The notes under the pieces: generated by a model
The model's input: only the letters and a program-made list of their open reading frames with translations
Databases searched by the model: none
Told to the model about the DNA's origin: nothing
Position numbers and translations under genes: made by a program
DNA from: Elusimicrobiota bacterium
GTDB taxonomy: Bacteria > Elusimicrobiota > Elusimicrobia > JACQJP01
DNA length: 64,000 bases
Direction of reading: 5' to 3'
Assembly: GCA_016204975.1 (NCBI GenBank)
Contig: JACQJP010000055.1
Location: 2,098 to 66,097, forward strand
In this document: positions 10,942 through 60,375 of the stretch, piece after piece
Layout: each line of letters begins with the position of its first letter
How positions within the stretch are numbered: the stretch's first letter is position 1

Positions 10942-11075
10942 GGAAGAAGACGAAACAGCAATAACCGGACTCTTGCAAAGATATTGAGAAGGGGACTGGG
11001 CGGGGATTGCCTGGAGAAAACCCTGTGCAGCTTGGCCCTGGGCTACGAGCGAAGCGAGAGCCAAGCTGCACTCGG

Positions 11076-11154
11076 GAGCGAGCCTCGCAAATGGCAAGCG
11101 TTTTCCGGAAGGCAACCCCGGACAGGCCCCTAAAGTACCTCTTTGCAAAAGTCC
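11076..11154. mobile_element. partial MITE-like element (right half with terminal TTTGCAAAAGTCC) in the moxR-DUF58 intergenic region
   Basis: The sequence gagcctcgcaaatggcaagcgttttccggaaggcaacc...ctctttgcaaaagtcc aligns with the right halves of the full copies at 55106-55335 and 60176-60350. Confidence 0.5.
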
Positions 11155-12284: not shown

Positions 12285-13634
12285 GTGAAGATTCAGTCCA
12301 AGAAAATCGTCCTCTGCGCCGGGGTCCGCACCCCCTTCGGCCACATCGCCCGCTCCCTGGCCCAAGTCTATCCGGAGGAGCTTTTCCGGCAGACCTTGGA
12401 AGCTCTCCTGCGGAAGGCCTCCCTCTCCAAAGAAGCGGTAGATGGGGTGATCTGCGGCTGGGTGGGGCAAGGCTTCCATGCCCCCAATATCGCCCGCGTC
12501 ACCGCCCTAAAGGCGGGCCTCCCGGAGCGCGTCCAGGCCTTCACCGTCCAGAACAACTGCATCTCCTCGATTGAATCCGTAGCCGCCGCCGCCCGTTGCA
12601 TCCTCAGCGGCGAGGGGGAAGTTTATCTGGCCGGTGGCACCGAGTCCATGTCGCTATTGCCCTTCACCCTGCAGGGCTCCCGCGCCTCCAAAGAGCTGAG
12701 GAGCCTGGAGGCCTTGAAAAACCGCTGGGGGGAAATCCCCAAGAGCCAGGAGGTTGCTGTGGTGGACTCTCTGGAACAGGGCCTGACCGATCCCGTCCAA
12801 ACGATCAACATGGCGGCCACGGCCGAGGTATGCGCCCAGATATACGAAATCTCCCGGGAAAAACAGGACGTCTACGCTTTGGAGAGCTTCTCCCGGTGCC
12901 TGGCGGCCTGGAAAGAAGGCTTCTACCGTAGCCATGTCTTCCCGGTCACCCGCAACGGGGCGACACTTTTAGAAAAAGACGAATATCCCTTCCTGCGGGA
13001 GGAGCTCGTCTCCAAGCCGGAAAAATTCGCCAAAGCTCCCCTTTCCTTCGACACCTCCAGCTATCCCATCCAGAATTTCTACCACGATTTCGAGCGCCAC
13101 ATGCCGGGCAAAAACTACCAGGCGGGAAAAACAAAGGGGACGGTGACCCTGTTCAATTCCTGCGCCAGATCGGACGGCGCCTCCGCGGTGCTTCTCGCGA
13201 CCGAAGAGAAAGCCCGGAAGCTGAAACTACCCGTTCTGGCGGAAATCGCGGCCTGGGGATTTTACGGAAATAACCCCGCCCACATGGGGATCTCACCCGC
13301 CCTGGCCGCCCCCGTCGCCTTAGAGCGCGCGGGCATCTCTTTCGAGGAACTGGACTCCATCGAGCTCCACGAGCCCTTCGCCGCCACCGTCTTGTCCATC
13401 TTTAAGGTGGGAGAAGAGCGCTTCGGGAACCGATGGGAAGAAAAATGGAAACAGGGCCGCTTGAACCCCCATGGCGGCTCCATCGCCATGGGCCATCCCT
13501 TGGGGGCCACCGGCACGCGCCTGGTCTTAAACCTCCTCTACGCGCTCCAAAAAAAACCCTCCGCCCAATGGGGCCTGCTGGCGGCCTGTGCCGGCGGCGG
13601 CATGGGCGGGGCCATGGTGCTGAAAAAAGTTTAA
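12285..13634 (+). CDS. thiolase-family acetyl-CoA C-acyltransferase
   Basis: GTG start after GGAGG. Thiolase N- and C-terminal signatures: CAGVRTPFG, NNCISS, GGTESMS, C-terminal GGMGGAMVL. Confidence 0.8.
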   Translation: MKIQSKKIVLCAGVRTPFGHIARSLAQVYPEELFRQTLEALLRKASLSKEAVDGVICGWVGQGFHAPNIARVTALKAGLPERVQAFTVQNNCISSIESVAAAARCILSGEGEVYLAGGTESMSLLPFTLQGSRASKELRSLEALKNRWGEIPKSQEVAVVDSLEQGLTDPVQTINMAATAEVCAQIYEISREKQDVYALESFSRCLAAWKEGFYRSHVFPVTRNGATLLEKDEYPFLREELVSKPEKFAKAPLSFDTSSYPIQNFYHDFERHMPGKNYQAGKTKGTVTLFNSCARSDGASAVLLATEEKARKLKLPVLAEIAAWGFYGNNPAHMGISPALAAPVALERAGISFEELDSIELHEPFAATVLSIFKVGEERFGNRWEEKWKQGRLNPHGGSIAMGHPLGATGTRLVLNLLYALQKKPSAQWGLLAACAGGGMGGAMVLKKV

Positions 13635-14524
13635 CCCCGGGGATGGTATCTTTGGTGGTGGGACTTCAGGTGCCTGCGATCGAGGTGGGTATAGATTTGG
13701 GTGGAGGAGAGACTGGCATGTCCCAGCATCTCCTGGACGGAGCGCAGGTCCGCCCCGCCCCGAAGCAGATGGGTGGCAAAGGAATGCCGGAAGGTATGGG
13801 GGGAAATCTGTTTGGAGATTCCGGCGCGCCTGGCTGCATCCTTTAAATCCCGCCAAAACTGCACCCGGCTCAGTCTCTTGCCGCCCCGCCCCAAAAAAAC
13901 CTCCGGAGCCGTCTTGCGCTGCGCAAATCTCCTCTGCCGGAAATCCAGGTAGCGCCCCAAAGCCTCCACAGCGCGCGCATGAATGGGAATCAAGCGCTCC
14001 CGATTGCCCTTGCCGACGACCCGAACCCAACGCTCTTCCAATTGCAGCTGCTCGCGTTTGAGGCCGACCAGCTCCGAAACCCGCATGCCGGTGGCATAGA
14101 TCACCTCCAGCATGGCATGCATGCGGATCGCCTGCTCCTTTTTGGAGCCGGCACACTGCCACAACAACCTCTGGACCTCCTCAGGCTCCAAGACCACGGG
14201 GAGCCTCGCGGTCCGGCGGGGCAACCCCAGTCTGGCCACGGGATTTTTGGAGAGCTCTCCCTCGAAGATCAAGTAACGATAGAAGCTGCGCAGGGCCTGC
14301 ATCTTTCTGGATAGACTGGCCGGCTTCAGGGACAGCTTGGAATGCAAAAACCACAGGTAGTCCGAGATCTGCGAAGGCGTAATCCGCAGGAAGGGAATCC
14401 CTTTTTTCTGCAAAAACTGTAAGTAGTGTTCTAAATCCCTGCGGTAGGCCTGACAAGTATGGACCGAAAGACCGCGTTCCAGCGCCAGCTGCTTAATAAA
14501 CTCCGAGAGGTGATCGGTGATTTC
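13631..14524 (-). CDS. XerC/XerD-family tyrosine recombinase; N-terminus has no canonical start codon
   Basis: C-terminal catalytic region HTFRHSFATHLL...LGHASLSSTQIYTHL. The frame stays open upstream of the track's TTG start (14413) and encodes the expected core-binding N-terminus EITDHLSEFIKQLALERGLSVHTCQAYRRDLEHYLQFL. This frame runs directly into the recA stop codon (14525-14527) in the same frame, with no ATG, GTG or TTG in between. Confidence 0.75.
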   Translation of the reverse strand, partial: EITDHLSEFIKQLALERGLSVHTCQAYRRDLEHYLQFLQKKGIPFLRITPSQISDYLWFLHSKLSLKPASLSRKMQALRSFYRYLIFEGELSKNPVARLGLPRRTARLPVVLEPEEVQRLLWQCAGSKKEQAIRMHAMLEVIYATGMRVSELVGLKREQLQLEERWVRVVGKGNRERLIPIHARAVEALGRYLDFRQRRFAQRKTAPEVFLGRGGKRLSRVQFWRDLKDAARRAGISKQISPHTFRHSFATHLLRGGADLRSVQEMLGHASLSSTQIYTHLDRRHLKSHHQRYHPRG

Positions 14525-25146: not shown

Positions 25147-26466
25147 TTGAAAAGTCTAGTTCTGATCCTGCTGCTTTTCTGGAGCCCGGCACAGCTTCGG
25201 CCGTCCTGGGCCGCCGTTCAGCCGGACTGGGAGCATCGCCAAAGCGCCCACTTTCTGCTGTACTACCAAAAACGGGACGGAATTCTCGTGGAAGGCTCCC
25301 TGGAGGCCTTAGAGAGCGCCTACCGGGAAATCGGAAACGATCTCCGCTATCATCCTCCGGATAAAATCCGGGTGGAGATCTACCGCACCAAAAAAGAATT
25401 CGCCCTCGCCTCCACCCTGGGAGAAAAAATTTTGGAGCATGCCGGGGTCATCGGCATCTACAAGTTCAACCGCCTCATGATCCTGACCCCCGAGGCCCTG
25501 GCCTTCGGGTACCGTTGGCAAGATGCCCTGGCGCACGAATACACCCACCTTCTGATCGACCGAATCTCTGCGGGACCCGACTACGGTCGGGGAGTGCCGG
25601 CTCAACACGCCTTTGGGGCCCGGCCTGCGGCCGCTGTCCCCCTGTGGCTCCATGAAGGAATCAGCAAGTACGAAGAAACCCGTTGGCGTCTGGCGACACC
25701 GCAGCCCCTAAGCCCGGGAGACTCCGATGAACTGGCCCAGGGCCTAGAGGCTTCCCGTCTCATCCCCTTCTCCGCCATGGAGCCCTCCCTGGTCTACCTG
25801 GACAGCCAGGAGGCGGTCTCCCTGGCCTTCGCCCAGGTGGCCCATGCCGTGGGGACCCTGGTTCAAACGCGTGGACCGGCGTCTCTGTCGGAGCTTTTGC
25901 GAAACCCCTCCCAACGGCCGGCCTTTACACAAGACTTCTACTTGGAATGGAAAGAGGCTCTGAAGGAAAATCCTCCGCCCCGCCTTCCGGGAGCCGCCAA
26001 AGGCCGCACCCACTTCAAAGGGGAAACGGAGGAGGTCTTCCTGGGAGCGGACCTGCGTGGGCTCATCCGCCTGGGGGACCGCTTCCGGCAAAGAAAGCTC
26101 CCGGAGATCGCCCTCCGAGAATACCGAAAGGCGCTGGAGCGGGAACCCTATAACCCCATCGCCCTCTACAAAACGGCCATGACCCTGCTGGAGACCCGCC
26201 GGAAGGATATCGCCCTGGAACACCTGGAAACCTCCACCCGCTACAATCCCCATCACGCCGCCGGCTGGATTCTTTTGGCGGATCAATATGTTACACTGAA
26301 GAACTGGGAGAAGGCGATCGCCGCATATACCGAGGCCCTCCGCATCAATCCCTTTAACCCCCATCCCTATCGGCAACTCCAGGTGATCCATACCCGGCTC
26401 GGAAACAAAGCGGAAGCGGAAAAACAGAATCAAAACCTGCAGCGGTTACAAACCGAGGGGCCATGA
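25147..26466 (+). CDS. secreted HExxH-motif (zincin-like) protein with C-terminal TPR repeats; carries an in-frame 55-bp repeat-element insertion
   Basis: Signal peptide, AHEYTHLL ... LHEGISKYEE, and C-terminal TPR repeats. The start lies somewhere among TTG codons at 25126-25147. Confidence 0.55.
   Translation: MKSLVLILLLFWSPAQLRPSWAAVQPDWEHRQSAHFLLYYQKRDGILVEGSLEALESAYREIGNDLRYHPPDKIRVEIYRTKKEFALASTLGEKILEHAGVIGIYKFNRLMILTPEALAFGYRWQDALAHEYTHLLIDRISAGPDYGRGVPAQHAFGARPAAAVPLWLHEGISKYEETRWRLATPQPLSPGDSDELAQGLEASRLIPFSAMEPSLVYLDSQEAVSLAFAQVAHAVGTLVQTRGPASLSELLRNPSQRPAFTQDFYLEWKEALKENPPPRLPGAAKGRTHFKGETEEVFLGADLRGLIRLGDRFRQRKLPEIALREYRKALEREPYNPIALYKTAMTLLETRRKDIALEHLETSTRYNPHHAAGWILLADQYVTLKNWEKAIAAYTEALRINPFNPHPYRQLQVIHTRLGNKAEAEKQNQNLQRLQTEGP
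25571..25625. repeat. 55-bp palindromic repeat element, copy A (in frame inside the HExxH-TPR gene)
   Basis: cgggacccgactacggtcggggagtgccggctcaacacgcctttggggcccggcc is near-identical to the copies at 37610-37663 and at 55204-55258 (reverse complement). It is translated as AGPDYGRGVPAQHAFGARPA. Confidence 0.7.
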
Positions 26467-29963: not shown

Positions 29964-30560
29964 ATGCCGCAACTTCCATCCAAAAAAGACATCCTGGAAA
30001 CCCTCCTCTTCATTACCGACCGCCCGGTAGCTCTTGCGGAGTTGGCCCACATTCTCCAGGAAGAGCAGCCTGTGGCCCGCACCCTGATCCAGGACTTAAG
30101 GCGCGAATATGCCCAGAGAAAATCCCCCATCCAGATATTGGAGGTGGCGGGGGGATTTCAGATGGCCACCCGGCCGGAATATGTCCCGCAGATCCGGCAG
30201 CTCTACCAGGAAAAGATGACGACCCGGCTGACCACGGCGGGACTGGAGACCCTCTCCATCATCACCTATCGGCAACCCATCACCCGAGCGGAGATCGAGC
30301 AGGTCCGGGGGGTGGAGGTGATTGCCTCTCTGGAAACCCTGCTGGAAAAACGCCTGATTGCAGTCGTGGGCAGGAAGGAAACCATCGGCAGGCCGCTCCT
30401 CTACGGCACGACGGAGGAGTTCTTAAAACGCTTCGGGCTCAACGCCTTGAAGGACCTGCCGCCCTTCGAGAAGTTTCTCCCGCAAAAAGAGCAAACCGCC
30501 GCCCCCGCCGTATCAGAACCTACGGTCCCGGTGACCCCCGCCGACCCACCAAACTCCTAA
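29964..30560 (+). CDS. scpB: segregation and condensation protein B
   Basis: ILETLLFITDRPVALAELAHIL winged-helix ScpB signature, immediately after scpA. Confidence 0.8.
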   Translation: MPQLPSKKDILETLLFITDRPVALAELAHILQEEQPVARTLIQDLRREYAQRKSPIQILEVAGGFQMATRPEYVPQIRQLYQEKMTTRLTTAGLETLSIITYRQPITRAEIEQVRGVEVIASLETLLEKRLIAVVGRKETIGRPLLYGTTEEFLKRFGLNALKDLPPFEKFLPQKEQTAAPAVSEPTVPVTPADPPNS

Positions 30561-31864
30561 GGAGAAAAAACCTGAGGTTGGCCGGTGCGGAAGGCGCCGG
30601 CCTTGAGCTTTTCCCGGCTCAAATCATAAAAGCGATCCAGCAGCCCGACCTCGGCGAGAATTCCCATTCCTCTCAGAAAATTCCCGCTCCCCGGTGGAGC
30701 GCCCTCTTTTCGGCCTCCGTCATGGTAGTCCGCGCCCGGCGTATAGGTCAGTCCCTTGCCCTGCGCCATGCGAATCAAATGCGCAAAAATCCAACCCACC
30801 CTGGCATCCTTCCGGAAATAGCTGAAACGAAGCGCCTCCAGGGCGGTGAGAAAATCCTTGGCGTATTGGTCCAGAAACTCTCCCAGCCTGGGGATTCCAA
30901 AGGGATGGGCGATGGAAATGCCTCCGCCGGCCTCCAGGATGGCCTCCGCGCCTTCCCGGAAGGAGATGGGTTGCAAAGAAACGTAAGCCGGATTCTTGCT
31001 CCCATCAGGCAACGTCGGCTCCAAATAGCGGTCAAAGGCCTGTCGGGTGTCTTTGGCGTATTTTCCTTTCTTCAGCTTGACGATGGCCCGAGCCACGATG
31101 GGATCGCCCCCCGTTCCCTGCTCCCCCTGGGGCATCTCCTTGAGGACCTGTCGCAAGGTGATGGGGAGCGGCTCCGGCACCGCCAGCTTGGAGAGCTTCT
31201 CCACCTGCTCCTCCATGCGCGACATACGCCTTCGGCGATTTTCGTTAACCCTCCGGATCAAGAGCTTGTTTTTGGGATCAATGAACATTCCCAAAAGGTG
31301 CATGGCTCGACGATACTTCTTGGAAGGGGCGGAAACGCTCAACTCCACTCCCGGAATAACGATCATGCCGGGAAATTTTGCGCCCACCTCCTTGCGAATT
31401 TTTTCCACCACCTGCTCGGCCAGGGGAATCCCGCTTAAATTTTCATGGTCCGAGATGGTCAGGGCCTGAAGCCATTTGGAAAATGCCAGCCGGACCACCT
31501 CCTCAGCGGTGTCCTCGCCGTCCGAAAAATTGGTGTGCAGATGCCCATCCCAGTAGAAGCTCCGGCCCTCGGGATTGACCCGGATGCGAACCTTGCCGAG
31601 GTTGCCGACCAGCACCTCCCTCTCCTCCCACTGTCCCACATCCTCGCCTCGAATGGCCTGACGCTCCAGAGCGGCGGGGAATTCCGAAACAGGCGCCTCC
31701 CCCAACCGGTCCAGCCCAAAATCCCTCGCCGGAACACCGATGGAGCCGCTGGGGGCATAAATCCCAGGGCCTTTCCACGGCCTCGCCCTTCCGCGCTGGC
31801 CCCATCCACCGGCAGGAAGGCAAAGAGTCAGTAAGAAAAACAAAATCAGACGCTTCGGTGCCAT
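30557..31864 (-). CDS. secreted PHP-domain (polymerase/histidinol-phosphatase-like) phosphoesterase
   Basis: DGHLHTNFSDGEDT ... ISDHEN PHP metal-binding motifs. Start trimmed to the ATG at 31864 (MAPKRLILFFLLTL, signal peptide). Confidence 0.6.
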   Translation of the reverse strand: MAPKRLILFFLLTLCLPAGGWGQRGRARPWKGPGIYAPSGSIGVPARDFGLDRLGEAPVSEFPAALERQAIRGEDVGQWEEREVLVGNLGKVRIRVNPEGRSFYWDGHLHTNFSDGEDTAEEVVRLAFSKWLQALTISDHENLSGIPLAEQVVEKIRKEVGAKFPGMIVIPGVELSVSAPSKKYRRAMHLLGMFIDPKNKLLIRRVNENRRRRMSRMEEQVEKLSKLAVPEPLPITLRQVLKEMPQGEQGTGGDPIVARAIVKLKKGKYAKDTRQAFDRYLEPTLPDGSKNPAYVSLQPISFREGAEAILEAGGGISIAHPFGIPRLGEFLDQYAKDFLTALEALRFSYFRKDARVGWIFAHLIRMAQGKGLTYTPGADYHDGGRKEGAPPGSGNFLRGMGILAEVGLLDRFYDLSREKLKAGAFRTGQPQVFSP

Positions 31865-31973
31865 TCCCCTGATTGTAGGAGAAACCCACCCGGGGACACA
31901 TGAGCCCTTTGGGCCTTTGGGGGAGGGCAAAAGACCCACCCCAAAATGGGTCCAAAGTCCCAGGTCAGTAAGT

Positions 31974-32000
31974 CCCCAATTCCATTTTGCCAAAGCCCGC
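31974..32000. repeat. degenerate MITE-terminus remnant upstream of glgA
   Basis: ccccaattccattttgccaaagcccgc versus the consensus cccccaattccattttgcaaaagtcc. Confidence 0.25.
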
Positions 32001-32024
32001 AATAAATATACAATTCCAAAAACA

Positions 32025-33488
32025 ATGAAAATCGCCCTGGCGGCCAGCGAGGCGGTGCCCTACGCCAAAACAGGGGGGCTGGCGGATGTGGTGGGCGCCC
32101 TGGCCAAGCTCCTGCCCCAAAACAACTGCCAAACCCTCCTCTTTCTACCCAAGTACAAATCCATCGAGGAGCAGCGATGGAAGCTCCGGCGCCTACCGGG
32201 GAGCCTCGCCGTTCCCGTCGGCTCCCGGCAGGAACCGGCCACCCTGTTTCGGAAAGATCAGGGAAGGCTGAAGGTCTATTTCATCGCCCACCCCCGCTAC
32301 TTCGAGCGCGAGGGACTCTATACTGCGCCCCAAGGAGATTATCCGGACAACGACGAGCGCTTTCTCTTCTTCAGCCGGGCCGTGCTGGAGAGTCTGAAAA
32401 AATTGGGATGGCAGCCGGACATCCTGCACTGCCACGACTGGCAGACCGCCCTGATCTGCGCTTATCTTGAGACCCTTTACCGCGAGGATCCCTTCTTCCG
32501 CCGGACCGGCACCCTGCTCAGCCTTCACAACCTCGCCTACCAAGGTCTTTTTCCCAAAGAGTCTTTGCTGAAGGCGGGATTTGGATGGGGGGAATTCACC
32601 CCGGAGAAATTTGAATTCTACGGGTGCATGAGCTTCTTAAAAGCGGGGATCGTCTCGGCGGACCTGTTGACCACCGTCAGCCCCACCTACGCCCGGGAGA
32701 TCCAATCGGACCCCGAAAAGGGCAAGGGGTTGGAAGGGGTGCTCCAAAAAAGATCGCAAGACCTGACCGGCATACTCAACGGTTTGGACATCCAGCTTTG
32801 GACCCCCTCCAAAGACCCCCACCTGAGCTGCCGCTACTCCGCTTCCACAGTCCTCAAGAAAAAGCCCCTCTGCAAGGAGTTTCTACAGAAAAGATGCGGC
32901 TGGACCCCGTCCCCCACAACCCCTCTTCTGGGAATCGTCTCCCGATTGGACCCCCAAAAAGGAATTGACCTGGCCTGCGAGGTGCTCCTGCCTTACCTCA
33001 AAGAAAAGAGTCTTCGGACCGTCCTGCTGGGCTGTGGGGATTGCGCCCTCCAGGAAACCCTTCGGGAGCTGGCCCGGCGGCATCCGGAGCAGATATTCGT
33101 CTCCAATGACTTCGACGAACCCCTGGCCCACCAGATCTACGCCGGATGCGACTTCTTCCTGATGCCCTCGCGCTTTGAGCCCTGCGGCCTGGGACAGATG
33201 ATCGCCATGCGCTATGGAACCCCGCCCATCGTGGTCCGGACGGGGGGCCTGGCGGACACCCTCCGGGATCCAAAATCCCACCCGGAACAGGCCACGGGCT
33301 TTCTGGCGGAAGCTCCCACCTCAAGCGCCGTCCAAGAGGCTTTGGAACGAGCGCTCCAAACCTGGCGCCAACCCGAACAATACCGCCGGATGGTCCACAA
33401 CGCCATCCGGCAGGACTTCTCCTGGAAAAAGTCCATCCCCCTCTATCTGGAAACTTACCAAAGAGCTCTTTTCAAGAAGTCGAAGTGA
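32025..33488 (+). CDS. glgA: glycogen synthase (ADP-glucose type)
   Basis: MKIALAASEAVPYAKTGGLADVVGALAKLLP N-terminal signature and a GT1/GT5 C-terminal domain. Confidence 0.85.
   Translation: MKIALAASEAVPYAKTGGLADVVGALAKLLPQNNCQTLLFLPKYKSIEEQRWKLRRLPGSLAVPVGSRQEPATLFRKDQGRLKVYFIAHPRYFEREGLYTAPQGDYPDNDERFLFFSRAVLESLKKLGWQPDILHCHDWQTALICAYLETLYREDPFFRRTGTLLSLHNLAYQGLFPKESLLKAGFGWGEFTPEKFEFYGCMSFLKAGIVSADLLTTVSPTYAREIQSDPEKGKGLEGVLQKRSQDLTGILNGLDIQLWTPSKDPHLSCRYSASTVLKKKPLCKEFLQKRCGWTPSPTTPLLGIVSRLDPQKGIDLACEVLLPYLKEKSLRTVLLGCGDCALQETLRELARRHPEQIFVSNDFDEPLAHQIYAGCDFFLMPSRFEPCGLGQMIAMRYGTPPIVVRTGGLADTLRDPKSHPEQATGFLAEAPTSSAVQEALERALQTWRQPEQYRRMVHNAIRQDFSWKKSIPLYLETYQRALFKKSK
33423..33482. repeat. 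left direct repeat (glgA 3' end) of the island
   Basis: tggaaaaagtccatccccctctatctggaaacttaccaaagagctcttttcaagaagtc is repeated at 35530-35588 with 2 mismatches. Confidence 0.7.
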
Positions 33489-33694
33489 CTCAAGCTGCAG
33501 CAGAAGTCCCAAAGTAGCCGGCCACTCACTGCTGAAGTAGGCCCTCTGGCCTCTATTCCTAGGACTTTCGTCCTACCTCAAAAGTAGGTCCTTTTTCTTA
33601 AATTTTTTTCCCTTTTGGCCTATGGAAAACTAAATGGGCTGTGATAAAATTCCGATCGTTGTAGAAAGTGACACAAGCAGGAGGAACAGCCAAA

Positions 33695-34741
33695 ATGAAA
33701 AACTGGATTGTTGCATTTGCACTCCTTCTAAGCTTCGAGCCCACATGGAGCCAAACAACTACTCAAGATTCCACAAGCGACTTTTCTAAAATTCTGTCTA
33801 CTCCCAAAGCCAGAACTGTGGTTGAGACGTTCTTTGAGCAAGATCCAATACTGGCTCAAAGCCCATACGTAGGCAGTACCTATTTGCATCATTTGGGTGT
33901 ATTCCGCTGGCTTTTGACTATGAGCTCCGAGGAACTAGCGACTCAGCTGAGGATTGATAAGGAAGAAGCTGAGCAAGTTCAATCTAGAGCTAGAATAGTG
34001 TACAACACATTAGAGATTGCCTCAGCACAAGGAGCGGTAAGCGACGTAGCAACCAATCTGCTAGCAGAAATCAATATCAATTCGGCTCATATTGAGAGCT
34101 CACCTTCCCAAAGGCAGGGGGTAGAAGAAGAAGGTGGAAAACAGTCCGGAGGTTTCTCTTGGATTGAGAGGACGAACCTCAAACAGAGCGGCATTGCTTC
34201 TACGGGGGTGATGGTTCTGATTGGCGGGGGCGAGGGCATCGTCCCAGAGCCTTTCCGGCAAGACATCCGCTGCTGTAATGTGGGTTCTAACGGTCGGTAC
34301 ACGCTGAAGGGGGGCGGCGCCCATGTCCTTTTCGGTGTGCCATTCAACTCCTGGTCTGAGGGGCGCTTGTCCGTAGGGGCCTTCTTGAACGACAGCCCCA
34401 TTCAGAGTTGGCTAGCCTCTTCGAATCTAGAGGATTATGATCAAGATTCAGCTGTGATTCTGAATCTTGAGGCATTGGTCAAGCCGGTGAGGTTTTTTCA
34501 ACTTATGGCTCCCTATGTGGGAGGAGGCCTGGGATTTGCGACAGATGGGCTATGGTTTCCTGTTACAGTTGGGGTGGATTTCAAATTGAGCAGGTCCCTG
34601 AACCTTCTTGTCGAGCATAAGAGATTCCTTCCTGGACTGGGCCGGGCTTTGGATCAAACGAATAAGATTCCAAGCACTTGGGTTCGTTCCCTCCAAGCAT
34701 ATGCTGTGGGCTTGGTTTATACATTTCGGGATAAGGAATAG
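33695..34741 (+). CDS. hypothetical secreted / outer-membrane-like protein (island cargo)
   Basis: AGGAGG RBS, ATG at 33695, signal peptide MKNWIVAFALLLSFEPTWSQ. Low GC. No recognizable domain. Confidence 0.45.
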   Translation: MKNWIVAFALLLSFEPTWSQTTTQDSTSDFSKILSTPKARTVVETFFEQDPILAQSPYVGSTYLHHLGVFRWLLTMSSEELATQLRIDKEEAEQVQSRARIVYNTLEIASAQGAVSDVATNLLAEININSAHIESSPSQRQGVEEEGGKQSGGFSWIERTNLKQSGIASTGVMVLIGGGEGIVPEPFRQDIRCCNVGSNGRYTLKGGGAHVLFGVPFNSWSEGRLSVGAFLNDSPIQSWLASSNLEDYDQDSAVILNLEALVKPVRFFQLMAPYVGGGLGFATDGLWFPVTVGVDFKLSRSLNLLVEHKRFLPGLGRALDQTNKIPSTWVRSLQAYAVGLVYTFRDKE

Positions 34742-34866
34742 CGTCTGTAACTTCCCAAGCCTCATTCCATCGTCGCTGGACCCCATAGCTACACTAAATA
34801 AAATCCTTGACAGGAGTGGTTTCTAATGTTAAACTATTGTTGAACAAATAGCCAGGGAGGCTCTTT

Positions 34867-35232
34867 ATGAACGCAGTGACCTTACTCAAAGAAATGGAAA
34901 CCCTTGGAGCGAGGGAGTTCCGGCATAGACTTGATAAGATGCTTAGAAACCCTTCCCGTCCCTGCCGTGTCATGCTCCACAATAAACCCACCTTTGTTGT
35001 TTTGCCCGATGGAGACTTTCTCCAGATTATGGAAGTAATCGAAGAGATTAAAGATTCGGGCCTGTGGAAGAAAACAGTCCAGAAGCTCCAGAAGGAAAGC
35101 AAGAAGAAACACCCCTGGTTCTGGAGCAAGGAATGGCAAAAGAAGGAAAGGGAGGTAGACCAGGAGATCAAGGCTGGCCGGGTCCATCGCTCCAGCTCCG
35201 TTGAAGAATTCCTCAAAGAGCTCAAGGCGTGA
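34867..35232 (+). CDS. Phd/YefM-like type II antitoxin with a C-terminal extension
   Basis: GAREFRHRLDKMLRNPSRPCRVMLHNKPTFVVLPDGDFLQIMEVIEEIKD. Overlaps the downstream toxin gene by 4 nt. Confidence 0.55.
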   Translation: MNAVTLLKEMETLGAREFRHRLDKMLRNPSRPCRVMLHNKPTFVVLPDGDFLQIMEVIEEIKDSGLWKKTVQKLQKESKKKHPWFWSKEWQKKEREVDQEIKAGRVHRSSSVEEFLKELKA

Positions 35233-35489
35233 TTATCAGGTGGACCCATAAGGCCAAGGAGGACTACCAATCCCTTCCTGAGGCCATTCAAGAGAAGGCT
35301 GATAAAGCGTTTCGACTTTGCCAGCGCAATCCCAGGCATCCCTCTCTCCATGTAGAAAAGATCGACCATAAAAGAGACATTTGGTCGGCCCGTATAGATC
35401 TGAATTACCGATTCACTTTCCAATGGGTTCATGGCGGTATCTTCGTCAGGCGGATCGCCTCTCACCAGGAGGCTTACCGAAGGCCTTAG
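35229..35489 (+). CDS. RelE/ParE-superfamily type II toxin
   Basis: 86 aa. The WTHKAKEDYQSLPEAIQEKADKAFRLCQRNP ... DIWSARIDLNYRFTFQWVHGGIFVRRIASHQEAY pattern matches the RelE/ParE fold order. Confidence 0.6.
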   Translation: MIIRWTHKAKEDYQSLPEAIQEKADKAFRLCQRNPRHPSLHVEKIDHKRDIWSARIDLNYRFTFQWVHGGIFVRRIASHQEAYRRP

Positions 35490-35529
35490 GTGGCGCGGGC
35501 TTTGGGTAGGCACCTGTTCGTTGATTTCC

Positions 35530-35588
35530 TGGAAAAAGTCCATCCCCCTCTATCTGGAAACTTACCAAAAAGCTCTTTCCAAGAAGTC
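35530..35588. repeat. right direct repeat of the island (copy of the glgA 3' end)
   Basis: See 33423-33482. Confidence 0.7.
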
Positions 35589-35664
35589 TCGACCTTGAAA
35601 AACCACCAGGCCTCTGTTATACTCACTTCAGAAATTCTCTGTCAAAGAGATTGAGAGGCGCGCG

Positions 35665-37560
35665 ATGCTCCAGAGATTGCTTTGGGAGCGGTGGTCCTAT
35701 TTGGCCTGTCTTTTAGGATGCCTTTTAGGAATCGGGGGGGGGTATCTTTCCCTCACCCATCGCCACGCGCGGCAAGCGGAGCAGGCCTTACGCAAAGAGT
35801 TCCGGGTCCTGGTATTCCTCTCGGACGGCAAAAAGGCCGACCCCTCCTCCTGGCGCCGCCGTCTGGGCGCTTTTCCGGAAATCCGCAGCGCCCGGTACCT
35901 CTCTAAAACAGATGCCCTCCGGGAGATGGAGAGGGCGGACCCCGAAGCGGGGCAGGCCCTGCGCGGGCTGCCGGAAAATCCCCTGTCAGCCTTCTTCTCC
36001 ATTGAGCTTAAGCCCCGGGCTTTTTCCCAGCTTTCTCTGCTGCAAAGGAAACTAGAGGTGCTCCCATTCGTGCAATCCGTTCACGCCCCCCAGGCCCCGG
36101 CCCAAACCATTCTCCAGTTGCAGCGCTACCAGCGCCTGGCGGAGGTGGCCGGCTCCGCGTGCCTGTTTCTGCTTGCCGTCCTGCTGTTTATCTCCTTTTA
36201 TCTGCTCTGGCGGCACAGTCCGGACTCTCCGGAAGCGATACGCCGCGGCCTTCTTTTCTCTTGCCTGTCCCTCTGCTTTGGACTGGCGAGCTGGGAACTG
36301 ATCCAGCTTCTGGCGCCCCCCATCCAGACCCCCTCCCCATTGACTCCAACTGTTTTCCCATCGGGACTGCTTCTGCCGGCCATGAGTTTTGCCGCCTCAG
36401 GATGGATCCTGGCCATCTGGAGTCAGGGAAATGCGAGGGGTGCGCCCCCGGGATTGGCCGGTCTCATGGTTCTCTCCCTCCTGGCCCCGGAAGCCCTCTA
36501 CAGCCAGCCGGGGAAACTGAGCCAAAACCGGGAGGAACTGAGCGCAGTGCAACAAAAGATCCAAAAGAAAAGCGCCAGCCTTCAGAAAACGCAAAAACAG
36601 GAATCGCAGCTGGAGAAGTCCCTGCAGGTACTTCAGGAAGATCTGCAAAGCTCTTTTCAAAACGCGGAGAGGCTGGACGGCCGTATCGCCCGGCTTCAGA
36701 CGCAGCAGGAACGTCTCGAGGAAAAAGAAGAAGTTTTACAACAAACCATCCAGGACCAGAAAAAGCACCTTGGGGAATCCGCCCGGCGATACCAAAAACA
36801 GCCGGACCCCCTGCTTGTTTTCCATCGCACCGCCCTTCTGAGACAAATCTCTGAGTTCCGGGAACTGGAGCAAAAAGAGTCCGGTCTGGCGGACTCCCTG
36901 GAAAAACTGGGTCAAAATGCGCAAGAGCTCCGCCGCCGCCGGCAACAGGCCTTGGGAGAAAACGAGCGAGCCAAAGAACGCTATGCGAAGGCCCAGGAAA
37001 AAATGGATCTCGCCCAGGAGAGAAAACGAAGGCTCTCTCAATCCCTGGCCCAACTCCATCGCTCCGCCCAAAATCTGGAGTTCTTAATCGAGCGCCTCCA
37101 AAAATCCTCCCACAGCCCCCGGCGTCTGGCCTGGAAAAGGCGGGAACTTCCCTGGCCGGTCCGGGGAGATCCCCTGAACCGCTTCGGCAAGCAAAAACAT
37201 CCGGAGCTGGACTCTTGGATTCTTCACAACGGAATCCACGTCCGCACGGACCCCCGTTCCCCCGTCCGGGCGGTGGAGGCGGGCCAGGTCCTCTACCGAG
37301 GGCCCTTCGGATCCTATGGCTCCATCGTCCTGCTCCGCCACGACTCCCAACTTTTCACCATCTACGGCGGCCTCCAGGAGATCCGTGTTCAAGAAAAAGA
37401 GAAGGTGCCGGCGGGGGGTGTTTTGGGGCTGGCAGGCACCGCCCCCACCGGGATCTGGAACCCCCTGCCCAAGGAGCCGGCGGGAATCGTCTATTTTGAA
37501 ATCCGGCAAAACGGAGACCCGGTGGACCCGCTCACCTGGCTAAGGACCCGATCCGACTAA
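35665..37560 (+). CDS. FtsX-like permease fused in frame to an EnvC-like coiled-coil + M23/LytM peptidase domain
   Basis: The N-terminal half has the FtsX periplasmic domain (FRVLVFLSDGKKADP...IRSARYLSKTDALREM...ENPLSAFFSIEL) plus 4 TM helices. A coiled-coil Q/E/K-rich segment follows. The C-terminal LytM region reads HNGIHVRTDPRSPVRAVEAGQVLYRGPFGSYGSIVLLRHDSQLFTIYGGL. The reading frame is continuous at 631 aa. Confidence 0.65.
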   Translation: MLQRLLWERWSYLACLLGCLLGIGGGYLSLTHRHARQAEQALRKEFRVLVFLSDGKKADPSSWRRRLGAFPEIRSARYLSKTDALREMERADPEAGQALRGLPENPLSAFFSIELKPRAFSQLSLLQRKLEVLPFVQSVHAPQAPAQTILQLQRYQRLAEVAGSACLFLLAVLLFISFYLLWRHSPDSPEAIRRGLLFSCLSLCFGLASWELIQLLAPPIQTPSPLTPTVFPSGLLLPAMSFAASGWILAIWSQGNARGAPPGLAGLMVLSLLAPEALYSQPGKLSQNREELSAVQQKIQKKSASLQKTQKQESQLEKSLQVLQEDLQSSFQNAERLDGRIARLQTQQERLEEKEEVLQQTIQDQKKHLGESARRYQKQPDPLLVFHRTALLRQISEFRELEQKESGLADSLEKLGQNAQELRRRRQQALGENERAKERYAKAQEKMDLAQERKRRLSQSLAQLHRSAQNLEFLIERLQKSSHSPRRLAWKRRELPWPVRGDPLNRFGKQKHPELDSWILHNGIHVRTDPRSPVRAVEAGQVLYRGPFGSYGSIVLLRHDSQLFTIYGGLQEIRVQEKEKVPAGGVLGLAGTAPTGIWNPLPKEPAGIVYFEIRQNGDPVDPLTWLRTRSD

Positions 37561-37589: not shown

Positions 37590-38960
37590 ATGAAAAAAAT
37601 CCATCCTGTGGGACCCGACTACGGTCGGGGAGTGCCGGCTCAACACGCCGTTGGGGCCCGGCCTCTCAAAACCGTTTTAGGAGCCCTGCTGATCCTTCCG
37701 GCGCTCTATTTCCTTCCCAAGGCCTACTCGGCGGTGGATCGAACCTATGAGCAGATCAAAATTCTGGTGGACATCTTGGACTATATCCGTGACAACTACG
37801 TGGAGGAGACCGAGACCCAGGAACTGATCTACGGCGCCGCCCAGGGCATGGTCCGCAGCCTAGACGACTTCTCCCAGTTTATGGAACCCCGTGAGCACAA
37901 GGAGATGAAAACAGAGACGGAAGGACAGTTCGGAGGCTTGGGGATCCGCATCGGCATCCGGGACGGATACTTGACCGTCATTACCCCGCTGCCTGGAACC
38001 CCCGCCTACAAGGCAGGGGTCATGCCGGGCGACCGCATCGTGAAGATCCAAAACGAAGGGGAGAAAGAACCGATCCTGGTGGACATGCAGAAGTGGACCC
38101 TCTTCGATGCGGTGGATGTGCTCCGTGGAAAGCCGGGCTCCAAGGTGGTCATCAGCGTCTCCCACCGGCAGATGGTCGAAGAGAAAGAAACCTGGAGCGA
38201 ACTGCAGGAGATCACCGTCGCCCGGGAATGGATCAAGATCCAAACCACCTACTCCAAATTCCTGGATCCGGACATCGCCTACCTGAGGCTCGTGGAGTTC
38301 ACCCAAAAGACGGTGCCGGATGCGGTTAAAGAGCTGAGGGCAAACCGCCAGAAAGGCATGCGCTCGGCGATTCTGGATCTGCGCAACAACCCAGGGGGAC
38401 TCTTGAGCTCGGCGGTAGAGTTCTCCCAGCAATTCCTAGGGCAGAACAAGCTGATCGTCTATACCCAGGGCAAAAATCCCGAAAACCGCCAGGAGTTCCG
38501 GGCCAAGACCAAGGGAGAATTCGAGGACATTCCTCTGGTGGTTTTAGTCAATGGGGGCTCCGCCTCCGGCAGCGAAATCGTAGCCGGAGCTCTCCAAGAC
38601 CACAAACGCGCCATCGTGATCGGTTCCAATACTTTCGGCAAGGCCAGCGTACAATCCGTCATTCCGCTCGCAGACGGTTCCGGGCTGCGGCTGACTGTGG
38701 CCAAATACTATACCCCCCTGGGACGCTCCATCCAAAGGGATAAAAAAACCAAGGAAGGGGGAATCCAGCCCGACATTCGAATTGAGGTCCCGAGGGAACA
38801 AGAGGCCAAGCTGCAGGCCCAGTGGCAGGAGATATACACCCCCGGGGAAGAATCCCAATCCGCCATCAAAAAAGAGGAGCAGGTCAAAGACATGCTCCTG
38901 GAGCGGGGGATAGAACTCCTCAAAGCCCGGCACGTCCTCTCCAGGCTGCAGGAAGGATAG
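37590..38960 (+). CDS. ctpA: carboxyl-terminal processing peptidase (S41, PDZ); 55-bp repeat element inserted in frame just after the start codon
   Basis: PDZ region IRDGYLTVITPLPGTPAYKAGVMPGDRIVKI. S41 catalytic region LVVLVNGGSASGSEIVAGALQDHKRAIVIGSNTFGKASVQ. N-terminus reads MKKIHPV[GPDYGRGVPAQHAVGARP]LKTVLGALLILPALYF. Confidence 0.8.
   Translation: MKKIHPVGPDYGRGVPAQHAVGARPLKTVLGALLILPALYFLPKAYSAVDRTYEQIKILVDILDYIRDNYVEETETQELIYGAAQGMVRSLDDFSQFMEPREHKEMKTETEGQFGGLGIRIGIRDGYLTVITPLPGTPAYKAGVMPGDRIVKIQNEGEKEPILVDMQKWTLFDAVDVLRGKPGSKVVISVSHRQMVEEKETWSELQEITVAREWIKIQTTYSKFLDPDIAYLRLVEFTQKTVPDAVKELRANRQKGMRSAILDLRNNPGGLLSSAVEFSQQFLGQNKLIVYTQGKNPENRQEFRAKTKGEFEDIPLVVLVNGGSASGSEIVAGALQDHKRAIVIGSNTFGKASVQSVIPLADGSGLRLTVAKYYTPLGRSIQRDKKTKEGGIQPDIRIEVPREQEAKLQAQWQEIYTPGEESQSAIKKEEQVKDMLLERGIELLKARHVLSRLQEG
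37610..37663. repeat. 55-bp palindromic repeat element, copy B (in frame inside ctpA)
   Basis: gggacccgactacggtcggggagtgccggctcaacacgccgttggggcccggcc. Confidence 0.7.
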
Positions 38961-46062: not shown

Positions 46063-46065
46063 GAA

Positions 46066-46080
46066 TTTTTGCAAAAGTCC
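46066..46080. repeat. solo MITE terminal repeat (TTTTTGCAAAAGTCC) immediately after the gene stop
   Basis: Exact match to the right terminal inverted repeat of the MITE family. No partner terminus nearby. Confidence 0.35.
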
Positions 46081-46148
46081 AGAATTAACATTTCTTTAAC
46101 AATTTTTTAATACGTTGGTAACACCCTTCCTTTAAAATTCCCTTCACC

Positions 46149-49306: not shown

Positions 49307-49506
49307 GGACTTTTGCAAATTTACAGAGAAGGGGGTGGCCGTGGGGATTGCAACCCCCGGACAGACCCCCAATTCCACTGGGGAAAACCTCAGGGACTTT
49401 TCCAATAAGAGATGGCAAAGTCTTACCGCAGGCGGGTGGCCAGGGATTGCAACCCCTGGACAGGACCCGCCTGCAAAAAAACAGAAATTCCATTTTGCAA
49501 AAGTCC
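49307..49506. mobile_element. MITE-like element (200 bp) with 13-bp terminal inverted repeats GGACTTTTGCAAA / TTTGCAAAAGTCC; internally rearranged copy
   Basis: Both termini read directly. The interior shares gggattgcaaccc..ggacag(a)cccccaattcca blocks with the copies at 55106 and 60176. Confidence 0.6.
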
Positions 49507-49526
49507 TGTTCCTATTTGGATTATTC

Positions 49527-55100: not shown

Positions 55101-56806
55101 GAACAGGACTTTTGCAAATCTATGAAGAAGGGGATGGGCAGGGATTGCCTGGAGAAAACCGTGGTTTGGCCGGCACGGGCATACAGCCGGCCAAATTGCC
55201 GGAGGCCGGGCCCCAAAGGCGTGTTGAGCCGGCACTCCCCGACCGTAGTCGGGTCCCGCAGCGAGCCTCGCAAATGGCGAGCGCTTTTCGAAAGGCAACC
55301 CTGGACAGACCCCCAATTCCATTTTGCAAAAGTCCAATAAAAATTTATCTTTTACCGCGACCTTTCCCGTGCCTTCTGCTGGGGCTTGCCCTGGCGACGG
55401 CCTTTCCGGGGCCGGCCACGGGCCTTTCCGAGTCCCAGATACAAACTCTGGAGACCTCCAAGCGCCTGACCCAGGAGATCTACCACCACCCCAGCTTTCA
55501 GAAACCGGAGCTTCAGAGCCCGGCCTGGAACGACCCCAACGAGGGCCTCCTGAGCCAAGCCCGGCTTTGGCAGGACGCCGTCGCCGTTCTCTATGAGTTT
55601 TTTGAGATCACCCGCCGAAGCTATCCTAAAAAACTGGGAGGGGAGGACCTCCCGCCGGGCGTCTTGATGGTGGACTACCAATCCAACCGGGTGCGCTTCC
55701 AAATGGCGCTGGACCGTCTCTACCGGGCCCACCTCGGAGATTCCCTGGACGGCAAGGGAAGATCCCTGATCAGCATGATGGAGATGGCGCTCAAGGAGAT
55801 GGACAGCTTCTTAAACGCCATCGCCACCAGCCGCGCCAAACAATACCAGGACTCCCTGCTGGCCATCGGGCAGTTCACCGCCATCCTCCATCGCACCTTT
55901 GAGGCCCCTCCCCGGGGAGGGGGAGGAGCCGCTCCCCGGGTTCCGGGCGCGATCACTCTGGGGCTCGTCCTGGGATGTCTGATATTCGCCTTCCTGGCGC
56001 TCTGGAGCCTGCTCTCCCAATACCACGATATCCTGGACCGGCAAATCCACCAGCACTGGGAAAGATCCAAGATGTGGGCCTATGAATTCAATAAGCAGTT
56101 TATCCAGATCCGGGTCCAATACCTGGTCTTGGCGCCGGCAGGCCTGGGAATACTGTTGGGGGTGCTCTCCGGGAGCGTTTTCGGCTTCCTGCTCTTGTCC
56201 GCGATGGGAGCGCTCACCGGTTTCTATGCCCCAAAGTGGCTCTTGAACTCCATCCGCCAAAGGCGGGGGCGCAAAATCGAGGCGCAGTTGATGGATGCCC
56301 TGATCCTTTTATCCAACGCCCTCAAGTCCGGCTTAGACCTCGTGCAGGGCTTTGAGCTGGTGCAAAAGGAGCTTCAGCCTCCCATCTCGGAGGAATTCGG
56401 GCTGGTGCTCAAAAACTATCAACTGGGCACTCCCTTTGAAACCGCCTTGGAAGGGTTGGAGGAGCGCGTAGAAAGCCGGCTCCTGAGCTACTTGGTCAAA
56501 GCGGTGCTCATCCAAAGGCAGGTGGGCGGCAACCTCACCCGCATCTTCGACCGCATCGTGGAGAGCATCCGGGAGGAAGGAAAACTCCAGCAGAAGGCCC
56601 GGGCCTTGACCGCTCAGCAACGCATGCAGGCGCTGGTGGTGGGATTTATGCCCTGGATCATGTTTCTGATTCTGTTCATGATCCAGCCCAAACTGATGGC
56701 CGATTTCTACTTGAAGCCCATGGGGTTGCTGGTGCTGCTGGGAATGATCCTGTGGGAGATGATTGGCCTGCAGATCATTCGAGGCATGGCCAACATCCGG
56801 GTGTAA
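55097..56806 (+). CDS. TadB-like (T2SS-F domain) inner-membrane platform protein; N-terminal about 80 codons are the in-frame read-through of a MITE
   Basis: ATG at 55097 overlaps the tadA TGA (ATGA). Codons 4-80 are MITE sequence. The C-terminal 300 aa form the TadB/GspF-like domain (LSNALKSGLDLVQGFELV...). Confidence 0.6.
   Translation: MRTGLLQIYEEGDGQGLPGENRGLAGTGIQPAKLPEAGPQRRVEPALPDRSRVPQRASQMASAFRKATLDRPPIPFCKSPIKIYLLPRPFPCLLLGLALATAFPGPATGLSESQIQTLETSKRLTQEIYHHPSFQKPELQSPAWNDPNEGLLSQARLWQDAVAVLYEFFEITRRSYPKKLGGEDLPPGVLMVDYQSNRVRFQMALDRLYRAHLGDSLDGKGRSLISMMEMALKEMDSFLNAIATSRAKQYQDSLLAIGQFTAILHRTFEAPPRGGGGAAPRVPGAITLGLVLGCLIFAFLALWSLLSQYHDILDRQIHQHWERSKMWAYEFNKQFIQIRVQYLVLAPAGLGILLGVLSGSVFGFLLLSAMGALTGFYAPKWLLNSIRQRRGRKIEAQLMDALILLSNALKSGLDLVQGFELVQKELQPPISEEFGLVLKNYQLGTPFETALEGLEERVESRLLSYLVKAVLIQRQVGGNLTRIFDRIVESIREEGKLQQKARALTAQQRMQALVVGFMPWIMFLILFMIQPKLMADFYLKPMGLLVLLGMILWEMIGLQIIRGMANIRV
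55106..55335. mobile_element. MITE-like element (230 bp) with terminal inverted repeats GGACTTTTGCAAA / TTTGCAAAAGTCC, carrying a nested 55-bp palindromic element
   Basis: Termini read directly. The interior is collinear with the 60176-60350 copy except for a 55-bp insertion at 55204-55258. Confidence 0.65.
55204..55258. repeat. 55-bp palindromic repeat element, copy C (reverse orientation, nested inside the MITE)
   Basis: Reverse complement of ggccgggccccaaaggcgtgttgagccggcactccccgaccgtagtcgggtcccg equals copy A. The insertion site in the MITE-60 copy is empty (gctcgc|tccggcaat). Confidence 0.7.
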
Positions 56807-59038: not shown

Positions 59039-60172
59039 ATGTCCATTAAGCTCAAATGGGGAGTGACCTTTTTGATGATCGCCGTCTATGCGATGGTGTT
59101 GGGAGGAATCTTCTACTACAACCTCTTCCGGTGGACCTTCGAGGAGCAGCTCAAAAACGACACCCTGCAGATCATCCGGACCCATGCCCCCTCGCTTCTG
59201 AAGGGTCTGCAGAAAAACCCCGCCGTCATCACCTTGGAGGAGATGGACATCCTGCAAACCTTGGCCCGCAACAAAAACATCGCCCAGGTGCTCTACCTCA
59301 ACAAATATGGGGAGGTACGCTGGCACCGCGACCCTTCCCGCATCAACCTGCCCTTCGAGGAGCACCAAAAGCAGGCCGGGCCGACCACCGACGCCATCCA
59401 GCAGGCCTACCTGGCCAAGGCCCCCAAGATCCGCAGCTTCGAGCGGGAAAACCAAAGATTCTACGAGATCGCCGCTCCCATCCTCTCTCGCAACGAACCC
59501 ACCGGCATCCTCTCCCTGCATGTGACCCGAGAGGAGGTCTCCCAAACCATCGGGGCGGCCATGAAAAAATACGCCGTGGGGGCCCTGGGAATCGTTCTGA
59601 TCCTGGGCATCCCCCTCCAGATATTCTTCAGCCGATTTGTCTTTCATCCCCTGCAGATGCTGCTGGATGCGGTGGAAAACCTGAATACCCGAAACCTGGA
59701 GCTAAAGTTTCCTAAAAGGCGGGACGAATTTGGTAAACTAGCCCAAAACCTCCAGTCCCTGCTGGGACGCCTGCGGGAGGAGTTGGCTGCGGTTCAGCAT
59801 AAAGGGGAGCAGCGAGGCCGCTGGGAGCAGAGGCGCTGGGAATCCTTGGTGCGCGTTCTGGCCCAGAGCCGCCAGGCCATCATCGTGGATGAAAACAACA
59901 ACGTCCTCTACACCAATTTTCCGGTCCTCAAGGCCGCCACCCAAGGCATGGGGACCTCCAAGCTCCACCTGTTGGACGTGGTGGACAGCCGGCAGCAAGA
60001 GCTTCTGCGCTTGGTCAACTGGGCCCTGGAACACCCCAATGAGCCGGCGGAAGGAGACACCGACTTTCGGGGCCGCCCCTGCCACGTGCGCATCCTAAAC
60101 CTGGAGGACACCGGGGAAGACCGTCGGACCATCATACTGTTCGAACCTAAAAAAGAAAGCACCTGGATATAA
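59039..60172 (+). CDS. two-TM sensor-like protein with a periplasmic domain and a HAMP domain but no kinase output
   Basis: TM1 WGVTFLMIAVYAMVLGGIFYY. TM2 plus HAMP: LGIVLILGIPLQIFFSRFVFHPLQMLLDAVENLNTRNLELKFPKRRDEFGKLAQNLQSLLGRL. Confidence 0.5.
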   Translation: MSIKLKWGVTFLMIAVYAMVLGGIFYYNLFRWTFEEQLKNDTLQIIRTHAPSLLKGLQKNPAVITLEEMDILQTLARNKNIAQVLYLNKYGEVRWHRDPSRINLPFEEHQKQAGPTTDAIQQAYLAKAPKIRSFERENQRFYEIAAPILSRNEPTGILSLHVTREEVSQTIGAAMKKYAVGALGIVLILGIPLQIFFSRFVFHPLQMLLDAVENLNTRNLELKFPKRRDEFGKLAQNLQSLLGRLREELAAVQHKGEQRGRWEQRRWESLVRVLAQSRQAIIVDENNNVLYTNFPVLKAATQGMGTSKLHLLDVVDSRQQELLRLVNWALEHPNEPAEGDTDFRGRPCHVRILNLEDTGEDRRTIILFEPKKESTWI

Positions 60173-60175
60173 AAT

Positions 60176-60350
60176 GGACTTTTGCAAAATGGAATTGGGG
60201 GTTCGTCCGGGGGTTGCCTTCCGAAAAACGCTCGCCATTTGCGAGGCTCGCTCCGGCAATTTGGCCGGCTGTATGCCCGTGCCGGCCAAATCACGGTTTT
60301 CTCCAGGCAATCCCCCGGCCACCCCCTTCTCTATAAATTTGCAAAAGTCC
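60176..60350. mobile_element. MITE-like element (175 bp), the shortest and cleanest copy, with terminal inverted repeats GGACTTTTGCAAA / TTTGCAAAAGTCC
   Basis: Termini read directly. Internal gggttgccttccgaaaaacgctcgccatttgcgaggctcgc is the reverse complement of the 55-kb copy's interior. Confidence 0.65.
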
Positions 60351-60375
60351 AGTATAAACAAAAAGGAGGTCGTAC

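Follow-up and report, generated by a model that had tools for sequence, protein, structure and literature searches.

A low-GC islet between direct repeats of the glgA 3' end in an Elusimicrobiota bacterium: a probable remnant of a site-specifically integrated element

The Elusimicrobia are a phylum with few cultivated members, and to our knowledge almost nothing is known about their mobile elements or the attachment (att) sites that such elements use. In a metagenome-assembled genome (MAG) of one Elusimicrobiota bacterium, glgA, which encodes glycogen synthase, is duplicated at its 3' end, and the two copies enclose a segment of 2,045 bp whose composition departs sharply from that of its surroundings. 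The locus lies within a 64,000-nt stretch of contig JACQJP010000055.1 (GenBank assembly GCA_016204975.1, positions 2,098 to 66,097 of the forward strand), referred to below as the window, and all coordinates are those of the window unless another contig is named. The segment between the copies (33482-35526), which we call the islet, contains three open reading frames (ORFs): an orphan gene and a toxin-antitoxin (TA) pair. The islet is probably what remains, between att sites, of an element that entered the 3' end of glgA by site-specific integration and has since lost its own recombinase, comparable to the class of cis-mobilizable elements (CIMEs). The locus would then represent a clean, precisely bounded horizontal acquisition at the 3' end of a protein gene. 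No new mechanism is implied, but 2 kb of a MAG contig are flagged as foreign, and a small RelE/ParE-type TA cassette is seen to circulate within the Elusimicrobia.

The direct repeat is 62 nt long, with copies at 33420-33481 and 35527-35588 that are offset by 2,107 nt and about 97% identical. Two positions differ between them, G at 33463 corresponding to A at 35570 and T at 33472 to C at 35579, and the 5' part of the repeat, its first 43 nt, is exactly shared. This 43-nt core, TCCTGGAAAAAGTCCATCCCCCTCTATCTGGAAACTTACCAAA, occurs exactly twice in the window, against an expectation of 0 from 100 shuffles, and a repeat scan of the whole window places the 62-nt sequence in a two-copy family of its own. 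The edges of the repeat are sharp, with similarity ending abruptly at both sides of both copies. An initial annotation of this DNA had described a repeat of about 60 bp that duplicates the end of glgA. The duplication is real and does carry two mismatches, yet it measures 62 nt and leaves out the very end of the gene, halting 7 nt before the end of the stop codon. Those 7 nt are insert DNA.

The target gene itself (32025-33488, + strand) encodes a GlgA of 487 aa (TIGR02095, E = 4e-160; PF08323, E = 6e-82) that is identical to a 487-aa GlgA annotated in an Elusimicrobia MAG (P0001) and is intact despite the insert. The left copy of the repeat, a putative attL, lies in frame on the + strand and supplies glgA codons 466-486, so that the final 23 codons of the gene cross this copy and terminate in islet-side DNA (..YQRALFKKSK, followed by the stop). 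The right copy is read in the same frame. As a putative attR with 10 nt added (35527-35598, + strand), it gives the in-frame reading SWKKSIPLYLETYQKALSKKSRP and then a stop codon of its own at 35596-35598 (..YQKALSKKSRP, stop), and it is probably the original glgA terminus, now detached. What the repeat encodes is a conserved segment of the GlgA C-terminus, SW...Y.E.Y, in which W467 and Y474 show no variation across 24 homologues. The left copy also includes a perfect 12-bp palindrome, AAAGAGCTCTTT, that is not present in the right copy; in folding calculations, the hairpin potential of the repeat was no better than that of shuffled sequence.

Joining 32025-33419 directly to 35527-35598 produces an uninterrupted GlgA of 488 aa, followed by a 66-nt spacer that holds a promoter-like site and then by the ATG of an ftsX-like gene. 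This reconstructed pre-insertion locus is fully coherent.

Between the two copies of the repeat the DNA changes character. The GC content of the islet is 48.9%, whereas that of the remaining window DNA is 59.7%. With z = -6.6 relative to other 2-kb windows, the islet is the lowest-GC 2-kb stretch in the 64 kb, and it is the top tetranucleotide outlier as well. GC content at third codon positions (GC3) is 0.50 in the orphan gene, 0.62 in the antitoxin gene and 0.58 in the toxin gene, as against 0.75 in glgA; host-like reference ORFs of more than 140 aa fall at about 0.60-0.81. The fall in GC that had been noted originally is borne out both by the windowed comparison and by the codon-usage check that were proposed along with it, and the data support an insert that is compositionally foreign and was acquired horizontally. 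Insert sequence was found as Logan unitigs from two independent sequencing runs, which indicates that it is real in the reads. One of these unitigs, L001, matches the window exactly from 33433 to 35556, the extent that a k = 31 unitig should have when a 43-nt exact repeat bounds it on either side.

The islet carries no visible machinery for its own movement. Profile searches with Pfam, NCBIfam, PHROGs and PADLOC detected no recombinase, relaxase or transposase among its three ORFs, and its non-coding sequence, read in every frame, showed no recombinase remnant, so that the earlier statement that no integrase remains holds for genes and recognizable remnants alike. Terminal inverted repeats are missing from the islet ends, and plasmid and phage collections contained nothing that matched the islet DNA.

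How might such a structure have arisen? In the explanation that we favor, an element-borne attP would have recombined with an attB made up of the terminal 62 bp or so of glgA. Such an attP would have mimicked the glgA terminus and brought in its own short replacement end (..SK, stop), with strand exchange most likely taking place inside the 43-nt exact part. A crossover at that position would mean that the 3' part of the left copy, including the palindrome, came from the element, and that the right copy kept the chromosomal ending (..SRP, stop). Throughout, glgA would have stayed functional, with a terminator-like hairpin of the islet now following it, and the ftsX-like gene would have retained its own promoter. 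With the recombinase no longer present, what is left would be attL, cargo and attR, and no genes for integration or transfer. The cargo itself is a mosaic, made up of an orphan secreted or envelope protein and a self-contained TA cassette of 0.67 kb that appears to move independently among Elusimicrobia. The initial annotation had read this region as the footprint of a site-specific integrative element, likely decayed by now. The anatomy of that footprint (a foreign insert, a duplicated glgA end, an intact glgA and a coherent empty site) stands as observed; the action of a recombinase and the subsequent decay are what we infer from it.

CIMEs are defined by an attL-cargo-attR anatomy without integration or transfer genes (PMC5704250), and the islet shares several features with those of streptococci, which are att-flanked remnants left by integrative and conjugative elements (ICEs) or integrative and mobilizable elements (IMEs) residing in gene 3' ends. 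In both cases attL/attR repeats are present, one of which is the regenerated gene end, the cargo is foreign, and integrase and transfer genes are missing. Unlike the streptococcal examples, the islet resides in an uncultivated Elusimicrobia bacterium, has glgA as its target and is very small (2.1 kb). Moreover, no ICE or IME of the same att specificity is known, so both descent from such an element and mobilization in cis are unproven here. There is also a likeness to the islands that enter the 3' ends of tRNA or protein genes by means of tyrosine recombinases, which likewise show repeats of tens of bp, a replacement terminus, atypical GC content and TA cargo. In contrast to those islands, the islet has three genes only, and an integrase, an excisionase and a replication or transfer module are all absent. 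A search of the literature turned up no report of glgA as an integration target.

Several points weigh against site-specific integration as the origin of the islet. The source is a metagenome-assembled contig, and because the 43-nt exact repeat is longer than k, the Logan unitigs (k = 31) cannot tell an integrated form from an empty site accompanied by a 2.1-kb circle. No empty site was found in public data, since the best GlgA relative among 5.8 billion proteins is only 54% identical, and the C-termini of distant GlgA proteins do not indicate the ancestral repeat copy. The att core, with its third codon positions made degenerate, was unmatched in metagenome and viral contigs, and the public collections searched contained no attP, circular junction or integrase-bearing parent element. 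As no recombinase has been linked to the islet, the argument for site-specific recombination is one from anatomy.

The absence of a recombinase gene could also mean that one is supplied from outside. The islet would then be a still mobile, cargo-only satellite, one that never was autonomous or has ceased to need autonomy, and an unlinked integrase would excise and integrate it in trans. The gene for that integrase could lie in another part of the genome, on a different MAG contig or on a co-resident element that shares its specificity for the glgA att site. We regard this as unlikely, though a number of features fit it. All three ORFs are intact and have good ribosome-binding sites, the repeats are still 97% identical with their 43-nt core exact, and the islet has kept its own GC content instead of converging on the host's. 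Streptococcal CIMEs, for their part, are moved in trans by related elements (PMC5704250). In addition, the left arm of the islet contains two exact AAGTAGGYCC motifs, at 33535 and 33582 (47 nt apart), which are the sole exact copies in the window and could be arm-type binding sites; with a single mismatch tolerated, however, their number falls short of significance, and we rejected them as candidates for that role. Also counting against supply in trans, the 64-kb window holds a housekeeping-type XerD and no other candidate integrase, and the public collections searched yielded neither an attP nor an attB junction. A bolder form of the same idea, to which we give somewhat less credence still, holds that the islet is a live integrase-less mini-element of 2.1 kb with a glgA-terminus attP, moved by an unlinked recombinase, and that the orphan envelope protein is the selected cargo. 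If that were true, glgA would be a previously unreported integration hotspot, and the islet would offer a first handle on the mobile-element biology of groundwater Elusimicrobia.

The topology of the locus does not in itself require a dedicated recombinase. A single RecA-dependent (Campbell-type) crossover between the chromosome and a circle carrying 62 bp of glgA-end homology yields exactly this arrangement, with direct repeats of the shared segment around the insert; 62 bp suffices for homologous recombination, and the islet is without a recombinase gene. Still, the abrupt ends of homology at both copies mean that the donor circle would have had to match the glgA end over precisely those 62 bp and no further, and to bring a substitute stop codon with it, which is in effect an attP. 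The repeat also keeps the glgA frame and rebuilds the gene, as is typical for evolved att sites. Some other illegitimate duplication of the target runs up against the lack of terminal inverted repeats and of a transposase, and against a repeat length of 62 bp; the target-site duplications known to us are far shorter. Taken together, we consider these recombinase-free routes very improbable.

An assembly artefact is no more likely. It would require that the chromosome have an empty glgA/ftsX-like junction, and that a 2.1-kb segment from a separate molecule or organism had been threaded into it by way of the 43-nt exact sequence. The source is indeed a metagenome assembly, the composition of the islet is sharply different, and the Logan unitig breaks exactly at the repeat, which is to say that the k = 31 graph branches there. 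Yet both variant copies of the repeat and all four half-junctions are present in the reads. A separate molecule would still need to carry a mimic of the glgA terminus, which amounts to the same biology in excised form, and a 2.1-kb circle with the orphan gene and the TA pair has no replication gene. Standard assemblers, in addition, would be expected to end at a k above 43 and so to resolve the repeat.

Three further candidates were rejected. A transposon with target-site duplication does not fit, as there are no transposase and no terminal inverted repeats, 62 bp is too long, and the end motif of the dispersed repeat family in the window (see below) is absent at the islet boundaries. Nor does Xer-dependent integration of the type seen in integrative mobile elements exploiting Xer (IMEX) by the XerD of the window: that enzyme is of the housekeeping type, host-like in composition and 19 kb away, and the repeat lies inside glgA, although a dif-like site was not specifically searched for. 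The possibility that the TA cassette itself generates flanking repeats was set aside because the other loci with this cassette have none.

The islet consists of a non-coding left arm, the orphan gene and the TA cassette. The left arm (33482-33694, + strand) supplies the last 7 nt of glgA, including the stop; beyond these, 33489-33694 has a GC content of 45.6%, and a terminator-like hairpin with a T-run is found at 33572-33598.

The orphan gene (33695-34741, + strand) most likely starts at the ATG at 33695, which is preceded by an AGGAGG ribosome-binding site, and would thus encode a protein of 348 aa. Databases likewise record it with 348 aa. The initial annotation had it as a hypothetical secreted protein of 357 aa, a length that needs correction; the ORF is there, and its N-terminus is indeed signal-peptide-like (MKNWIVAFALLLSFEPTWSQ). 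Its stop-free run of 358 codons exceeds the maximum of 232 seen in 2,000 shuffles, which makes it probable that this is a real gene. No family match was obtained in Pfam, NCBIfam, PHROGs or PADLOC, and the protein retrieved only itself, both from 5.8 billion clustered proteins and when HMMER was run exhaustively against 1.84 billion representatives. The sole non-self match, P0138, was discarded as a tandem-repeat artefact, and the 350-aa neighbor of the TA pair in another locus (L005) proved unrelated when the two were compared. A single-sequence AlphaFold2 model was unusable, with a mean confidence score (pLDDT) of 35.7. As it has no homologues, the orphan protein cannot be traced to integrase-bearing elements.

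The remaining two genes form the TA cassette. A promoter-like site, TTGACA-17-TAAACT with a TG (34807-34835, + strand), lies ahead of the operon, the antitoxin gene (34867-35232, + strand; 121 aa) comes first, and the toxin gene (35229-35489, + strand; 86 aa) begins within its end, so that the toxin start and the antitoxin stop share 4 nt. In searches with the toxin, PF05016 (ParE_toxin) gave E = 1.1e-5 and 26.3 bits, above the cut-off of 23, and PHROG 1213 (RelE-like) gave E = 2e-9; the toxin's best profile match in the PDB is YoeB (E = 0.033). On the strength of these profile matches we assign it to the RelE/ParE superfamily, as a YoeB-like member. The antitoxin is part of a small family, mostly of Elusimicrobia, and has eleven full-length relatives at 53-80% identity. 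It matches PF02604 with E = 0.05 and 13.8 bits, below the cut-off of 29.8; the same model matches 5/11 of the family members, the best with E = 0.0011. The top six Foldseek matches are YefM chains, with non-significant E values of about 1-3 for a model with a pLDDT of 65.5, and the antitoxin can be called weakly Phd/YefM-like. Of the Phd/RelE-type pair proposed originally, then, the RelE/ParE toxin is well founded and the Phd/YefM assignment of its partner is tenuous. In GenBank the antitoxin (HY402_07150) is annotated as a protein of only 86 aa that starts at an internal Met. Across the family alignment it is the full 121-aa form that is conserved, with MNAVTLL..GAREFR at the N-terminus.

In organization the cassette follows the type II TA systems of the YefM/Phd-YoeB/RelE/ParE group, having the antitoxin upstream, a 4-nt overlap, a toxin that matches ParE/RelE/YoeB models and a promoter-like site of its own. 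It departs from the typical system in its antitoxin, which has 121 aa, comes from a mainly Elusimicrobia family and falls below the Pfam Phd/YefM threshold. The two-gene operon, with the antitoxin first and the genes overlapping (by 4 nt in the window), is conserved, as the same pair recurs in 11 or more further loci, some of which come from Elusimicrobia MAGs. The contexts are all different, and include positions after queA, near an H+-pyrophosphatase gene, beside giant proteins and beside gcvP. None of these relatives adjoins glgA or a recombinase gene, an absence that is weak evidence given that the comparison contigs are mostly short.

The closest cassette (L003) has 79% nucleotide identity, and the homology is limited to 34821-35485 of the window. 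This copy, at 1182-1877 of a Hainich groundwater contig from ENA, has a GC content of 48% in a setting of 57-59% and sits between queA and the next gene, with no flanking repeats. The restriction of homology to the TA cassette, together with the low GC content of the L003 copy itself, argues for a mosaic islet with a TA cassette that is mobile by itself. The family seems to spread as a bare unit of 0.67 kb among groundwater Elusimicrobia. Within the islet, the TA pair may contribute to stability.

The islet is embedded in housekeeping blocks that are syntenic with those of other Elusimicrobia, TrpS-ScpA-ScpB-GlgA upstream and genes for ftsX-like, M23/EnvC-like and CtpA proteins downstream. A scan of genome contigs for relatives gave six Elusimicrobia loci, all distant, and exact protein-sequence look-ups returned no record for GlgA, the ftsX-like/M23 protein or the toxin. 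The gene that follows glgA varies by lineage. It encodes an alkaline phosphatase in L009 and L030 and a DUF5693-like membrane protein in L008 and L010; in L007 it is TrmO, followed by an RND efflux cluster. The adjacency of glgA and ftsX, which the initial annotation had taken for the native order, is accordingly not a general feature, as other genes separate the two in the distant relatives L007, L009 and L030.

Downstream of the islet, a promoter-like site in host DNA, TTGAAA-17-TATACT with a TG (35595-35623, + strand), overlaps the relic stop codon and precedes the ftsX-like/M23 (EnvC-like) gene. This gene (35665-37560, + strand) is a single ORF of 631 aa that combines an FtsX extracellular domain, a transmembrane part, a coiled coil and an M23 peptidase. 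In L007, L009 and L030 the corresponding region is split into two genes that overlap and code for about 265 aa and 387 aa, and the 631-aa ORF is either a true in-frame fusion or the product of a frameshift or assembly error in the MAG. The ftsX-like gene is without an adjacent ftsE in each of the Elusimicrobia loci examined (35665-37560 of the window, 19462-20256 of L007, 2862-3659 of L009 and 9012-9809 of L030). An FtsX-like/EnvC-like/CtpA cluster without FtsE therefore appears to be a lineage trait, and the missing ftsE, which had been connected with the islet, has to be uncoupled from it. On the other side of glgA, a PHP-domain gene (30557-32002, - strand) with a host-like GC3 of 0.68 lies on the opposite strand between scpB and glgA. 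Despite that composition it is a lineage-specific addition, as in L008, L010 and L030 about 100-300 nt lie between scpB and the glgA next to it.

The XerD-type tyrosine recombinase mentioned above (13631-14413, - strand) is the sole recombinase in the window. It scores 294.7 bits against NF001399 (cut-off 279) and is of the housekeeping type; its GC3 of 0.755 is host-like, and 19 kb separate it from the islet. Its ORF has only 260 aa and, compared with the family models, lacks some 35 residues at the start of the N-terminal SAM-like domain, which may reflect either start-codon placement or a real truncation.

The window also contains a dispersed family resembling miniature inverted-repeat transposable elements (MITEs), unrelated to the islet boundaries. 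Members are about 180-250 nt long, have inverted ends (GGACTTTTGCAAA...TTTGCAAAAGTCC) and are up to 96-98% identical to one another. Copies were located at 10964-11154, 49307-49515, 55103-55347 and 60167-60353, with fragments at 25565-25631, 37606-37665, 31974-32010 and 46064-46100, and the end motif occurs 8 times in the window, where 0.19 occurrences are expected. Some copies hold a nested module of 60-67 nt that is also present alone at 25565-25631 and 37606-37665, and a degenerate solo end is found directly upstream of the glgA start.

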